Shown: positions 1,395 to 10,722 of the stretch, in pieces
How positions within the stretch are numbered: position 1 is the first letter of the stretch
Layout of the letters: each line of letters opens with the position of its first letter
From: a virus
Reading direction: 5' to 3' (one strand)
Virus record (IMG/VR): IMGVR_UViG_3300014638_000001
DNA length: 64,000 nt
Position numbers and translations under genes: made by a program
The notes under the pieces: model-generated
What the model was told of the DNA's origin: nothing
Databases searched by the model: none
The model's input: the letters and a program-made list of their open reading frames with translations, nothing else

Positions 1395-1471
1395 CAGCGA
1401 GTAGGCAAGCCTGGAGAGCCGCCTGGCCTGGGACTAGGAAATCGTTGGTTCAAATCCAACCTCGCTGACCA
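1395..1471 (+). tRNA. tRNA-Pro(TGG) with C33
   Basis: CAGCGAG/CTCGCTG, CCTGG-CCTGGGA-CTAGG, GGTTCAAATCC, CCA. Confidence 0.88.
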
Positions 1472-3759: not shown

Positions 3760-4140
3760 ATGACGCAGATAGAAGCCGACAATTACAACATCACGCTGCC
3801 CATCACGACAGCCGCGGAAGCGAATGCCTGTTTCATGCAACCCGCACAATTGCAAGACGTTGACGCGAGTGGCAAGACCACGATTTACTTACGGCCGTAC
3901 GAATGTGCGACCAAATCCGGCGCACAGATGCTCGCGACCGCTGTTGGTGGGTCAATCAACGGCCAATTGATCCCCAGCCTGAAGGTCTCGCCGACGATCT
4001 ACACGGTCATCTGGCCAGACAATAGCAGCTCGCTTGCCGGTTGGTATATCTACAACTGGCTGATTCTGCATGGCTGGAACTGGAGTGGCGGAATTGATGT
4101 TGGATCGCCGCTGGCCTGGACCGCGCCGGCAGCGAAGTAA
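3760..4140 (+). CDS. hypothetical protein, 126 aa
   Basis: GAGGAGG SD, ATG, fills gap between tRNAs. Confidence 0.7.
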   Translation: MTQIEADNYNITLPITTAAEANACFMQPAQLQDVDASGKTTIYLRPYECATKSGAQMLATAVGGSINGQLIPSLKVSPTIYTVIWPDNSSSLAGWYIYNWLILHGWNWSGGIDVGSPLAWTAPAAK

Positions 4141-4145
4141 GCTAT

Positions 4146-4219
4146 TCCGGGATAGCTCAGTGGCAGAGCTCAGTTTTGGTAAAGCTGCGACTCGGGTTCG
4201 ATTCCCGGTCCTGGATCCA
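4146..4219 (+). tRNA. tRNA-Thr(GGT)
   Basis: TCCGGGA/TCCTGGA, CAGTT-TTGGTAA-AGCTG, GGTTCGATTCC, CCA. Confidence 0.85.
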
Positions 4220-4225
4220 GATTAT

Positions 4226-4380
4226 GCCGCCGTAGCTCAGTGGTGGATGTGCGGCTTCGAAGCGTTGTCCGGACCGCGCTTCGGGGTGCATCACATCTCC
4301 CATGTGGGGTGACCTGCATGGCTTTGAGAGCACCGACTGTGGAAGCCGGAGCATGGATGGTTCGAATCCTCCCGGCGGCT
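4226..4380 (+). tRNA. His(GTG)-like tRNA with 82-nt structured insertion in the D-loop (4245-4326); irregular anticodon stem, no encoded CCA
   Basis: GCCGCCG/CGGCGGC acceptor; removing 4245-4326 restores GCTCAGTGGTAGAGC; CTGTGGA loop; GGTTCGAATCC. Confidence 0.6.
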
Positions 4381-4390
4381 TTACCCACAT

Positions 4391-4466
4391 TCCGGGGTAG
4401 CCGACGTGGTCAAGGCACTGGCCTGAAACGCCAGCAATAGTCGTTCGATTCGACTCCCCGGAACCA
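4391..4466 (+). tRNA. tRNA-Phe(GAA)
   Basis: TCCGGGG/CCCCGGA, CTGGC-CTGAAAC-GCCAG, GTTCGATTC, CCA. Confidence 0.88.
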
Positions 4467-4536
4467 GACATTAACTGTGGTGGAACCAAGGCACTACGGC
4501 TTGACAGATCGCCGGATTACTTGCAAAATAGAAGAT

Positions 4537-4824
4537 ATGCACCAAACACCACGCAGAGTTCGAATAGGGCTGCGTGACAGAATGCTCGTTAGAATGGCGG
4601 AATCCTGGCCATCCCCTCCGAAGACTTTCAGTAAATTCCAACGTGAACGGCTTCGCAAGTCATTCGAAGTGGTTGATTTGTACTTAGATAGAGGGATGAC
4701 GGTCAGTGAAATCGCCAAAAGGCGGCACTGCACGCATCAGATGATTTCACTGATTTTGAAGCTGGGGATAGATTACCTGTTGGAGACCGGCACGATTCGA
4801 GTTATCGAGGAATTAGCAGCTTAA
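4537..4824 (+). CDS. helix-turn-helix protein (sigma70 region 4-like)
   Basis: RGMTVSEIAKRRHCTHQMISLIL HTH; TTGACA-17-CAAAAT at 4501-4529 favours the ATG 4537 start. Confidence 0.65.
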   Translation: MHQTPRRVRIGLRDRMLVRMAESWPSPPKTFSKFQRERLRKSFEVVDLYLDRGMTVSEIAKRRHCTHQMISLILKLGIDYLLETGTIRVIEELAA

Positions 4825-7272: not shown

Positions 7273-7709
7273 TGCCGGGGACAAAGCGCAAACGGGTGAG
7301 GAAGAGTCTCATCGAGAAACTCCCGGAGAGAATCCGAGAATCCGCGGTGATGCGTCGGCAGTCCATCCGCCCGAGCAGTATGACGAAGTACCAGCAGCAG
7401 ATGCTGTTGCTGTTCATGCCGGAAATCTCCCGGTGGTTTTTCGCTCGGCTCATGGACGGTGTCAAACGCGGGAACAAGACAGATCAGGCATTGTGGGCTG
7501 AAATGGCTGGGCATATCCAGCGCAAGAACGGCATCAACATCAACCAGCAGATCCTGAGCCAGCAGAACGTGAACGCGACGGCGCCGCGGTATTCGATGGA
7601 CCAGATTGTTCGAGAGCTCCAGGAACAAACCGAAATGAAGACGATCGACACGACGCTCGCAATCGAGCCAGGAGGCAGCGATGTTAACAACGTCGCGGTG
7701 GAAGCGTGA
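7272..7709 (+). CDS. putative terminase small subunit (positional), 145 aa
   Basis: ATG coupled to upstream TGA; basic N-terminus; overlaps the TerL start. Confidence 0.45.
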   Translation: MPGTKRKRVRKSLIEKLPERIRESAVMRRQSIRPSSMTKYQQQMLLLFMPEISRWFFARLMDGVKRGNKTDQALWAEMAGHIQRKNGININQQILSQQNVNATAPRYSMDQIVRELQEQTEMKTIDTTLAIEPGGSDVNNVAVEA

Positions 7710-10700
7710 CGTCGGCGTCGATGAACTCGTCGAGCATTTCGATCAGGAGAAGTACCTCGCCGACTGCAGTGTTCTAACGGTCGTGGAGATCCGTCAGCTC
7801 GCTGCCGAGATCAAGCGGTGTCAGGAAAGCTTCGAATACGCCGCGAGAAATTATTTTAAGATCATCAACAAGCAGCGGGAAGATCAGTATCTGACCTTGA
7901 ACGAGGGCCAGGACGTACTGCTGGAGAAAATCTACCGGCTGCGGGATCGCGGTAAACCACAGAAACTACAGATCATCAAAGCACGCCAGCTCGGAGCCAT
8001 GCATCCCACGACCAACGTGTTGACGGCAGAGCTCAATTGGGTACGAATCGATTCTCTCCGGCCAGGCCAGAAAATCATTGGCGTCGACGAGTTCCCGGCT
8101 GGCGGCCGTGGTGTTGGTAGAAAATTCCGTACTGCTGTTGTTCTCAAAAAGTGGACTGTCCAGAAGGAGGCATTTCGGATCACGATGGGAAACGGTGCCA
8201 TCTTGACGGCCACGGGAGATCACCCCTTCTTATGCAAGAAACGCGGCAATGTCCAGACCGAATGGCGATTGACCGCCGAGCATCCAAAAGGCAAGAAATC
8301 CTCATCGCCAATTCGGGTTGGTGATGAGATTAGGTGCGTAATTCCGCCATGGTATCGCGAGCAGGCTTTTGAGTTTGATGACGGATGGTTTGCTGGATTG
8401 ATGGACGGCGAAGGATCCTTGCGGGCGAAGAAAAACGGCGGCATTGAGGCGACGGTATCCCAGGTAGCTGGGCCGGTTCTTAACCGCGCGGCTCGCTACC
8501 TAGACTCGCACGGGTACCCATTCGCTGTTGATGTCGACAAACGAAAGAAGGCGGATAGTACGAAACTTGGCGATCAGCCGGTATACAAGCTTGTGCTGAA
8601 CAGTATCCCGCAGGTATTAAGACTTCTTGGGAACACCAGGCCAACGCGATTTGAGGGAAGGGATATATGGGAGGGAAAAGACTTACCTAACAACGGCGTA
8701 GGCCAATCATGGCAAAAAGTAGTCTCCATTGAATCGATTGGCGAGCAGGAGATGGTGGACATTGAAACCAGCACGGGAACGTTCATCGCGGAAGGCTTTA
8801 TCACCCACAACTGTTCGACATTGATCGAGGCGCTGATCGCCTGGCGCACGATGTTTTTCCCGAATGTAGCCGCGATGGTGGTCTCGCACGTCGGCACGCA
8901 CGCCAGCTTCCTGTTCCAGAAGATGGTCCACATCTACGACCAATTGCCATGGTGGATGAAGCCGATGCTCGCCTCGCGTAAGGAAGAGGAGGGGCTTGTT
9001 TTTAAGAATCCTGAGCCGGAATTACGTCGCGTGGATCCAGGGTTAAATTCCAGTGTGATTGTCCAGGCAGCCACACAGGTCTCGGGCGTTGGTGAGGGCT
9101 ACACCATCAATGCGATGCACTTCTCCGAGTACTGCAGCGTCGACGATTCCAAGGCGCGCGAAATCATTGAGGGTGACATGGTGCACGCGCTGGCGCCCAA
9201 TGTGGGTACTTTCGCGATCTTGGAATCCACAGCGAAGGGTGCTGGCCGGTTTTCTGAGGATTTATGGGTTGCGAATGTGGATCTAGCTGAAAAGGCTGAC
9301 TGGTATACAGTCTTCTTGCCATGGTTTTTTGAAAAACAGCGCGTAGTGGCTCCGGAAGATGGCTGGCGCCCAAGCGAGCCCGAACTCGCGATGCGTTTGC
9401 GTGTCGAGAAAGAGTGGGTGCAGTGCACTCATTGTGGCGAGTTCCGCGAACGTTACTTCAAAACGTTTGACATCAAAGGCAGTGAATGCACGGACTGCCA
9501 CAAGGGTACTCGAGAACCGTATCTCCTCAGCGATCCGCAGCTCGCCTGGATGCAGGAGCGCGTGCTCAATGCGCGCCGGCGCGGTCCGGAATCACTGAAA
9601 GAATTGCGCCAGGAATTGTGCACGACGGCCGAAGAGGCGTTTCAAATTTCTGGCATCGCTGTCTTCCCCGAGGATACGCAGGAGTTTGTGAACGAGACGA
9701 TTTGCCCGGCGGTTTGGACCGGAAACCTCGATCGCAAAGGCAAGTTTCACTGCTCGATTCGGGAAGTCGATGAGAACGGCAAAGAACACTTCAAGTGTTT
9801 CCAGGAATGGTGCACGGTGGATCATCGCTGGGATCTGGAAAGTCCCCTACAGATCTGGGAACTTCCGGAACCAGGCGCGCGGTACTGCATTGGTGTGGAT
9901 ATCGCCGAAGGGTTGGCAACCGAGAAATCGGACTACTCAGTATGCTGGGTAAATAAGATCGGTGATGCGCCGTCGCCAGACACACACGTTGCGACTTATC
10001 GATCGAATTCAATCAATCCGTCTGACCTAGCCGCCGTCTGCAACTTCCTTGGCCGTTGGTACAACGAAGCACAACTCTCGATTGAGTACAACGTCTATCA
10101 GACGACCGGCGACAACGTCAAGAATTTCTATCAGTACCCAAATCTATTCCGGTGGAAGCACTACGACTCCGTGACCGGGATGAACTCGAACAAGCTGCAC
10201 TGGCTCACACAACAGAATTCGAAACCGCAGCTATGGCAGACCGGCGTTCGCGCGCTTCGCGAGCGTTCGTGGTTCATCCACGACAAGATGTTCGCGCACG
10301 AGATGAAACGATTCCAGAAAGAGGAATACGACTCAAAGAAAGCGGAAGCCGAGACGAACTTTCATGACGATGTCATCATGGCTGCGCTGATCGCGCGCTA
10401 CACCAGTCACGATCTTGATTCCTACGACGAGAACGCCTATGCGGCCGCGGATGCTGGGCCGGCATTTGTCCAGATGCTCGAGTGGACGATGGATTGCCTG
10501 ACCTGCAAATTCACATGGCAAGCTAACAATCCAGAAGAGTACAGGCGTTGCCCATCACCGAAATGCAATTCGCCGATGTTGCATGGCAAGCCGAACACCA
10601 AAGAGGGACCCACTAAGCTGGGGGGAAAGTACGTTTTCCAGCAGATCGAAGAAGAAGTCAATGAGCTCGATACCCTGCCGGAAGACGGCACGTTAGAAAG

Positions 10701-10722
10701 GAATTTGGCACCAATCCTATGA
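7681..10722 (+). CDS. terL: terminase large subunit with intein
   Basis: IIKARQLG|CST Walker A; MHFSEY Walker B; ESTAKG; YCIGVDIAEG nuclease; HDDVIMA. Confidence 0.93.
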   Translation: MLTTSRWKRDVGVDELVEHFDQEKYLADCSVLTVVEIRQLAAEIKRCQESFEYAARNYFKIINKQREDQYLTLNEGQDVLLEKIYRLRDRGKPQKLQIIKARQLGAMHPTTNVLTAELNWVRIDSLRPGQKIIGVDEFPAGGRGVGRKFRTAVVLKKWTVQKEAFRITMGNGAILTATGDHPFLCKKRGNVQTEWRLTAEHPKGKKSSSPIRVGDEIRCVIPPWYREQAFEFDDGWFAGLMDGEGSLRAKKNGGIEATVSQVAGPVLNRAARYLDSHGYPFAVDVDKRKKADSTKLGDQPVYKLVLNSIPQVLRLLGNTRPTRFEGRDIWEGKDLPNNGVGQSWQKVVSIESIGEQEMVDIETSTGTFIAEGFITHNCSTLIEALIAWRTMFFPNVAAMVVSHVGTHASFLFQKMVHIYDQLPWWMKPMLASRKEEEGLVFKNPEPELRRVDPGLNSSVIVQAATQVSGVGEGYTINAMHFSEYCSVDDSKAREIIEGDMVHALAPNVGTFAILESTAKGAGRFSEDLWVANVDLAEKADWYTVFLPWFFEKQRVVAPEDGWRPSEPELAMRLRVEKEWVQCTHCGEFRERYFKTFDIKGSECTDCHKGTREPYLLSDPQLAWMQERVLNARRRGPESLKELRQELCTTAEEAFQISGIAVFPEDTQEFVNETICPAVWTGNLDRKGKFHCSIREVDENGKEHFKCFQEWCTVDHRWDLESPLQIWELPEPGARYCIGVDIAEGLATEKSDYSVCWVNKIGDAPSPDTHVATYRSNSINPSDLAAVCNFLGRWYNEAQLSIEYNVYQTTGDNVKNFYQYPNLFRWKHYDSVTGMNSNKLHWLTQQNSKPQLWQTGVRALRERSWFIHDKMFAHEMKRFQKEEYDSKKAEAETNFHDDVIMAALIARYTSHDLDSYDENAYAAADAGPAFVQMLEWTMDCLTCKFTWQANNPEEYRRCPSPKCNSPMLHGKPNTKEGPTKLGGKYVFQQIEEEVNELDTLPEDGTLERNLAPIL
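7996..8811 (+). mobile_element. intein, 272 aa, Ala1 (class 2-like), LAGLIDADG endonuclease motif
   Basis: G|AMHPTT...TATGDHPF (block B)...WFAGLMDGEG...MVDIET (block F Asp)...ITHN|C. Confidence 0.9.

Follow-up and report, generated by a model that had tools for sequence, protein, structure and literature searches.

A tRNA-shaped gene with a two-hairpin insert in its D-loop in the tRNA array of a peat and wetland podophage

In the tRNA array of a podophage from peat and wetland metagenomes, a 155-base tRNA-shaped gene lies between tRNA-Thr(GGU) and tRNA-Phe(GAA), at positions 4226-4380 of the 64-kb stretch of DNA analysed here (the window). The evidence points to a gene that derives from a tRNA, contains no recognisable intron, and cannot work as an ordinary decoding tRNA. 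It is probably either a tRNA look-alike that stays unspliced or a defunct tRNA gene, and not an intron-bearing histidine tRNA. We tentatively favour a lineage-specific, non-decoding and unspliced tRNA-derived RNA of ~155 nt, with a Thr/Ile-type origin in the array, and the pseudogene reading is nearly as likely. Since the case rests on one invariant sequence from one phage lineage, it is a lead and not a result.

The phage and its tRNA array

The phage genome to which the window belongs measures ~101 kb and was present in at least 19 metagenome runs from peat and wetland. Pfam matches identified a terminase with an HNH/intein insert, a podophage adaptor of the GP4/SU10 type, and a protein with sigma-70 region 4. 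Judged by this adaptor, the sigma-70 region 4 protein, and sigma-70-type promoters, the phage is a bacterial-type podophage. Strains with an identical tRNA region differed in the length of the terminase, with 741 residues in one (L004:17659-19884) and 1013 residues in the window (7681-10722), indicating that the phage population is polymorphic for the intein/HNH insert.

The tRNA array occupies the first 4.5 kb of the window, where ARAGORN identified 16 tRNAs, and the total reached 25 once the 10 kb upstream of the window were added. An HNH gene is present within the array. Position 33 of tRNAs is near-universally U. Five of the 16 window tRNAs have C33 in place of U33 and are otherwise normal (Table 1), and all phage tRNAs other than the 155-base element have either U33 or C33. 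Phage tRNAs have been suggested to change their anticodon loops and thereby escape host nucleases, and phage tRNA clusters are now viewed as part of an arms race with tRNA-cutting host nucleases (PMC10264068). The C33 of the five phage tRNAs fits the nuclease-escape idea and renders a tRNA-decoy role for the element conceivable.

Two further features of the phage were observed near its tRNAs. A gene of 75 residues (L004:1470-1697, minus strand), some 8.5 kb upstream of the window, belongs to the Pfam family Acb2_Tad1_hairpin, which comprises sponges for anti-CBASS/Thoeris signalling molecules. It adjoins a second tRNA block, also on the minus strand, with tRNAs for Ser, Cys, Leu, Ala, Gln, Asn, Arg, and His. 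Downstream of the element, a TTGACA-17-CAAAAT promoter-like element and a TTGCAAAAT motif were common to three phages, namely the window phage (Table 1) and its relatives L003 (about 1125-1160) and L137 (about 2875-2910). The promoter-like element is just 3' of tRNA-Phe and 5' of a small helix-turn-helix-like gene.

Table 1 Features of the tRNA array and of the 155-base element (window positions).
Feature	Position	Strand	Source
tRNA-Pro(UGG) with C33, loop CCTGGGA	1395-1471		
tRNA-Thr(UGU) with C33, loop TCTGTAA	2540-2616		
tRNA-Lys(UUU) with C33, loop CCTTTAA	3106-3179		
tRNA-Val(UAC) with C33, loop CCTACAA	3448-3524		
tRNA-Ile(GAU) with C33, loop CCGATAA	3526-3600		
tRNA-Thr(GGU), upstream neighbour, CCA end, then spacer GATTAT	4146-4219	+	ARAGORN; Rfam 56.6 bits
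Element: acceptor stem 5' strand GCCGCCG, 7/7 pairs with 4373-4379, T at -1 (no G-1)	4226-4232	+	Infernal
Element: U8 A9, D-stem 5' strand GCUC (4235-4238), D-loop start AGUGGU with G18 G19	4233-4244	+	Infernal
Insert: hairpin 1, 21 pairs, outer stem GGAUGUG/CACAUCU	4245-4298	+	predicted fold
Insert: hairpin 2, stem CCAUGUGGG/CCUGCAUGG, 9 pairs (two G.U), GNRA-type GUGA tetraloop	4300-4321	+	predicted fold
Insert: tail CUUUG	4322-4326	+	predicted fold
Element: A21, D-stem 3' strand GAGC (4328-4331), A26	4327-4332	+	Infernal
Element: anticodon-like arm, stem CCGAC/GCCGG with A.C mismatch, loop UGUGGAA	4333-4349	+	Infernal
Element: variable loop AGCAU and T arm GGAuGG-UUCGAAU-CCUCC, canonical T-loop, bulged U in stem	4350-4372	+	Infernal
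Element: acceptor stem 3' strand CGGCGGC and discriminator U, then TTACCCACAT, no CCA	4373-4380	+	
tRNA-Phe(GAA), downstream neighbour, CCA end	4391-4466	+	ARAGORN, Rfam
Sigma-70-like promoter TTGACA-17-CAAAAT for the next gene, kept in relatives; the tRNA transcription unit ends here	4501-4529	+	

The tRNA frame and the D-loop insert

The Rfam tRNA model RF00005 matched the element end to end (model positions 1-71) with 35.4 bits, above the gathering score of 29, and with E-values of 0.001 in the window and 6.5e-6 in 400 nt. This match required one unaligned block of 83 nt, which is located in the D-loop. The neighbouring tRNAs that reach the RF00005 threshold scored 50-70 bits, compared to 35.4 bits for the element. 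ARAGORN called no tRNA in the native sequence of 4226-4380 unless introns were allowed. An earlier note on this DNA, made from the sequence alone, had described the element as a His-like tRNA whose D-arm is restored by deleting 4245-4326, and the deletion indeed gave a GCUC-AGUGGUA-GAGC D-arm, upon which ARAGORN called a 73-nt tRNA, Pro(tgg).

Much of the tRNA frame is intact. The acceptor stem is fully Watson-Crick paired, so the element is a single unit and not a pair of tRNA fragments. The D-stem has four of four pairs, and U8, A14, G18 G19, A21, and the T-loop UUCGAAU are all retained. Out of 51 modelled pairs in the element, all were standard except one. The anticodon-like loop has G33, with UGG in register and GUG one base out of register. 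That the anticodon stem is out of register had already been noticed and was confirmed by the A.C mismatch and by the His-type CUGUGGA lying one base off. The T-stem contains either a bulged U or, in the alternative register, two mismatches, and neither register gives a continuous 5-bp stem. The 3' end reads CGGCGGC-T-TTACCC, and CCA is absent as the earlier note had stated, in contrast to the other phage tRNAs, all of which encode it (25/25; 16 in the window and nine upstream).

Located between U20 and A21, the 82-nt insert has a boundary that is ambiguous by one base. The D-loop at position 20/21 is a site of length variation in natural tRNAs. Folded alone, the insert reached -40.8 kcal/mol (z -3.47), and none of 200 shuffles was as good. 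Inside its outer stem, hairpin 1 continues through an internal loop (CG/GCAU) into an inner stem of 12 pairs, four of them G.U, and ends in an apex of two pairs capped by CCGG. Self-structure of the insert had been proposed from three pairings, of which GATGTG/CACATC and CGAAGCG/CGCTTCG were both found in hairpin 1, but TCAC..GTGA is unused, as its GUGA forms the tetraloop of hairpin 2. The opposite strand folded to -29.3 kcal/mol, so that the tRNA-sense strand is 11.5 kcal/mol more stable. Together with the seven G.U pairs and zero A.C pairs in the predicted stems of the insert and its GNRA tetraloop, this fits a structure at the RNA level and not a DNA palindrome.

The predicted minimum free energy (MFE) structure of the full-length element was not a cloverleaf (-73.3 kcal/mol unconstrained, -68.6 kcal/mol with the cloverleaf constrained). 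In it the insert tail is paired with the 3' strand of the anticodon arm; specifically, the tail CUUUG and the GG of hairpin 2 can pair with GAAGCC (4342-4347) of the anticodon-like arm.

Several other identities of the insert were considered and rejected. A repeat or MITE was dismissed because the 64-kb window holds no second copy of the insert and the insert has no terminal inverted repeats. Neither hairpin can give a 5-bp stem with a 7-nt loop, which eliminated a re-threaded D-arm layout, and a nested tRNA-shaped insert was eliminated because the T-loop motif is absent from the insert.

No known class of intron was recognised. Besides tRNA, no Rfam family matched 4100-4500 at E<=10, including group I and group II introns and all small self-cleaving ribozymes. 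The insert is preceded by T4244 and ends in G4326, as the earlier note had pointed out, and this combination of U before and G last, shared with group I introns, is expected by chance in about 1 in 16 cases. Its 82 nt form two simple hairpins with no group I core (P3-P8). The proposal of a minimal intron remnant or a trans-spliced group I intron was unsupported, given the lack of an Rfam match, an insert too small for a group I core, and its D-loop site. Introns at tRNA D-loop position 20/21 are known in Crenarchaeota. An exhaustive search found no bulge-helix-bulge (BHB) motif at 4244/4245 and 4326/4327, and four BHB-like arrangements elsewhere. The podophage adaptor, the sigma-70 region 4 protein, and the sigma-70-type promoters argue against an archaeal or eukaryal host that would supply a splicing endonuclease. 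A BHB-type intron, which had also been suggested, is excluded because its junctions lack the motif and the phage genes are of bacterial type. After removal of the insert, the MFE structure was again not a cloverleaf, and the spliced product would still be defective, since it keeps the anticodon-stem A.C pair, G33, and the T-stem bulge and still lacks CCA. Of the three readings initially offered, the group I intron is unsupported and the BHB intron excluded, and a tRNA mimic with an extra domain survives as the leading one.

Origin of the element and its relatives

The label "His-like" was not supported. The element has U-1, G1:C72, and U73, whereas the tRNA-His of the phage (L004:1389-1465, minus strand) is a textbook one with G-1, C73, CCA, and the anticodon loop CUGUGAA. 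The Infernal alignment of the element leaves GUG out of register, and it is in register only when ARAGORN places an intron in the anticodon loop, a parse at chance level. The tRNA-Pro(UGG) of the phage has C1:G72 and A73. Given that the phage carries both a canonical tRNA-His and a tRNA-Pro(UGG), there is no decoding gap for the element to fill. Its acceptor end (GCC..., U73) is of the type found in the Thr tRNAs of the phage, since the Thr(UGU) and Thr(CGU) genes start with GCC and all three Thr genes have U73. The spliced 5' half of the element (26 nt) is identical to tRNA-Thr(GGU) genes in >120 bacterial genomes, and its spliced body is 73-75% identical to the tRNA-Thr(GGU) of this phage and its relative, about as alike as orthologous Thr genes are to each other. 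The anticodon arm matches no synthetase identity set. A Thr(UGU) reading with C33 was rejected because no stem supports it. An attP-like host tRNA fragment was also rejected, as both tRNA halves are present. No integrase was among the 25 of 37 matched Pfam families listed, and one may still be encoded.

Six independent contigs of this phage, including the strain with the intein-less terminase, were compared with the window, and the element was identical in all of them. L001 and L002 were identical to the window over 340 bases (4141-4480) and L004-L006 over 4141-4600. Because all phage copies are identical, they provide no information on selection. The DNA-level comparison covered two relatives, L003 and L137, and the element was wholly absent from both. 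In L003, whose neighbouring protein is 75% identical, tRNA-Phe follows 3 nt after tRNA-Thr(GGU). In L137, whose marker protein is 58% identical, tRNA-Thr(GGU) is followed by a GATT spacer, a normal tRNA-Ile(UAU), a 61-codon ORF, and tRNA-Phe; the GATT spacer after tRNA-Thr(GGU) is common to L137 and the window phage. As both relatives lack the whole gene, the comparison contained no covariation, neither the decay of the insert that the earlier note had named as refuting nor its conservation, and not the uninterrupted allele that the note had suggested looking for. On the basis of these sequences, what follows tRNA-Thr(GGU) varies between the phages, making this a variable slot, and the element is specific to its lineage.

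When the window, the 10 kb upstream of it, and the relatives were searched with a covariance model of the element, no further copy was found. Apart from the element itself, the model matched best the tRNA-Ile(UAU) that occupies the same slot in L137, with 39.1 bits, only slightly above other tRNAs. This tRNA-Ile(UAU) and the tRNA-Thr(GGU) of L137 tied as the most identical to the element (75%). No homologue was found by blastn of 4100-4500 against 50,697 phage records, by exact and gapped patterns in viral contigs (5' junction, T arm and acceptor, hairpin 1, frame, anticodon-to-T), by a pattern search for the element in metagenome contigs, or by neighbour-protein searches in viral and metagenome contigs. 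BLAST of the element in 401 Planctomycetota genomes yielded only short chance-level matches and tRNA-Arg matches to the 3' half, and BLAST of the insert in 401 Alphaproteobacteria genomes yielded no homologue. Further relatives, with protein identities of 71-83%, were present in ERZ1426829 (contigs of 7.2, 18.4, and 38.7 kb, including the phage with 83% identity) and ERR10755940. Contigs of metatranscriptome X20 (depth ~2) span 3845-4214 and none of 4226-4466, and have no bearing on expression or splicing of the element.

Unusual tRNA genes were also observed elsewhere during these searches. The tRNA-Ile(UAU) of L003 (427-518) is 92 nt long and has an extra hairpin of ~20 nt in its variable region (Rfam tRNA, 40.5 bits), suggesting that these phages tolerate tRNA expansions elsewhere too. 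In a Rhodospirillales MAG (L043:6675-6980), tRNA-Thr(GGU) is broken after A37, between …CCCTTGGTA and AGGGTGGGG…, by ~225 nt of GC-rich sequence whose size and position fit a group I intron and which matched no Rfam family at the gathering score. The tRNA-Thr(GGU) genes of L102, L023, and L028 break after …TTGGTA as in L043, within the first 78 nt. Five marine alphaproteobacterial single-cell genomes (L010, L012, L022, L026, L124) carry exact 5' halves of tRNA-Thr(GGU) that run into non-tRNA DNA rich in A and T, in some cases next to a complete copy, and these halves look like duplicated attachment sites of integrated elements.

Competing readings and comparison with known systems

Under the reading that we tentatively favour, an unspliced tRNA look-alike, the element would be transcribed with tRNA-Thr(GGU) and tRNA-Phe(GAA) in the tRNA operon. 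Through its intact 7-bp acceptor stem and T arm, it could be excised by RNase P and 3' trimming enzymes in the manner of a tRNA. The D-stem, G18 G19, and the canonical T-loop would form the tRNA elbow, from which the insert between U20 and A21 would project as a separate two-hairpin domain. Lacking CCA, U33, a fully paired anticodon stem, and a matching synthetase identity set, the RNA would be neither charged nor decoding. We infer its transcription, its processing, its folding into an L-shape, and any function; if it acts at all, its role may be that of a stable mimic of tRNA, such as a decoy or a binding platform for a host or phage factor that recognises tRNAs. This reading draws on a tRNA model match that exceeds the threshold and places the insert precisely in the D-loop, on an insert that is predicted to be a self-contained, strand-specific fold with a GNRA tetraloop, on the redundancy with tRNA-His and tRNA-Pro(UGG), and on the lack of an intron, ribozyme, or BHB signature. 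The missing CCA fits an uncharged RNA, and the T4 RNAs rnaC and rnaD, stable non-tRNA RNAs inside a phage tRNA cluster, may serve as a precedent by analogy. The reading is weakened by the lack of conservation evidence and of homologues and by the absence of the gene from both relatives. It is also weakened because the T-stem bulge, the A.C pair, G33, and the missing CCA are equally expected of a decaying tRNA gene, and because the MFE structure differs from the cloverleaf. A more specific version, in which the element is a working unspliced mimic whose elbow domain binds or distracts a host factor recognising the tRNA shape, such as a tRNA-cleaving defence nuclease, is less likely than not.

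A dead gene is a serious possibility, though we hold it short of even confidence. An array tRNA, either a Thr-family paralogue or an occupant of the variable slot, would have been broken up by an insertion of 82 bp or a rearrangement, possibly in connection with homing-endonuclease activity in the array, and would now be decaying, with any transcript functionless. Several independent defects outside the insert (the loss of CCA, the T-stem bulge, the anticodon-stem mismatch, and G33) are consistent with such decay, as are the redundancy with intact tRNAs and the dispensability of a gene that the relatives do without. The slot holds a normal tRNA-Ile(UAU) in L137, which is the best non-self match of the covariance model, and an HNH gene lies in the array. 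However, useless DNA is quickly lost from phage genomes, 50 of the 51 modelled pairs are standard and the insert stems hold G.U and no A.C pairs, the fold is strand-specific, and the insertion occupies the only place in the D-loop where extra bases are tolerated. None of these four points is decisive against a young pseudogene.

The insert might also be removed by proteins, through an endonuclease and an RNA ligase or through hairpin cuts of the RNase III type, to give a working tRNA. The textbook D-arm and the ARAGORN call obtained after deletion agree with this, "enigmatic" introns of unknown mechanism have been published for Lak megaphage tRNAs (PMC6784885), of which this insert would be the D-loop equivalent, and the C33 of five phage tRNAs indicates that an odd anticodon loop is not fatal here. 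We nevertheless consider protein splicing improbable. The spliced form would retain the defects listed above and does not fold into a cloverleaf, and its identity elements misfit every candidate: as tRNA-His it lacks G-1 and C73, as tRNA-Pro it has C72 and U73 and not G72 and A73, and as tRNA-Thr it has G36 and not U36. No RNA ligase or splicing endonuclease was among the Pfam matches of the window's 37 largest ORFs (among the 25 of 37 matched families listed) or of the genes in the 10 kb upstream (L004), and L003 and L137 hold no uninterrupted allele. If the element were spliced, it would point to an unfamiliar tRNA splicing route in bacteria. Least probable is a tRNA-His(GUG) whose anticodon loop is interrupted between positions 32 and 33 by an insert of 80 nt (window 4258-4337). 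In this register the anticodon stem CGGCU/AGCCG is perfect, with the loop UUGUGGA, exactly as ARAGORN called it with introns allowed, and the site matches the published phage tRNA inserts (PMC6784885). However, the D-arm would be left with a single Watson-Crick pair, and the perfect AGAGC-A closure of the D-stem inside the "intron" would be a coincidence. G-1, C73, and CCA would still be missing, and the phage owns a proper tRNA-His. When the insert was replaced by 500 dinucleotide-preserving shuffles, ARAGORN with introns allowed still called an intron-containing tRNA in 39% and tRNA-His in 11%, and the required CGGCUY occurred in 8.8%. These rates put the anticodon-loop parse within chance. 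The D-loop parse is not within chance, as AGAGC-A and four of five stem positions are exactly in register.

Bacterial tRNA group I introns, such as that of cyanobacterial tRNA-Leu(UAA), have the same boundary bases as the insert, but they are ~200 nt or more, lie in the anticodon loop, and have a P3-P8 core, whereas the insert is much shorter, in the D-loop, and without a core. Archaeal and eukaryal BHB introns at non-canonical positions can share the insertion site of the element, but its junctions are without BHB. The "enigmatic" introns of Lak megaphage tRNAs (Devoto et al. 2019, PMC6784885) are, like this insert, short and of no self-splicing class, and both are without a known removal route in bacteria. 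The Lak inserts are in the anticodon loop of otherwise normal exons, whereas the insert here is in the D-loop between defective exons that lack CCA, and the relatives lack the whole gene and not the insert only, unlike an optional insert in a normal tRNA.

Two groups of structured RNAs were also compared with the element. YrlA-type Y RNAs of bacteria and phages, which are bound by Ro60, combine a tRNA mimic with extra helices, as the element does. The termini differ, however: those of Y RNAs pair into the stem that Ro60 binds, with a loop capping the acceptor-like stem, whereas those of the element form a normal acceptor stem. A tRNA mimic with a large domain grafted on its elbow would, if true, be a natural "tRNA scaffold" RNA that parallels the engineered ones and has a layout new among tRNA mimics. 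The species 1 and 2 RNAs of phage T4 (rnaC and rnaD) are non-tRNA RNAs of 119-139 nt that lie directly among tRNA genes, next to tRNA-Arg, and their function is still unknown (PMC9697503). They are known to be expressed, whereas the element is known here from its sequence alone, and the two have no sequence similarity. The end module of the element resembles that of T4 rnaC, in which a canonical T arm accompanies an acceptor-like stem, but rnaC scores below the threshold of the tRNA model and has no D-arm, whereas the element keeps the entire cloverleaf frame. Like rnaC and rnaD, the element is a predicted non-decoding structured RNA gene among tRNAs with a tRNA-like end, a correspondence that we regard as analogy and not homology.
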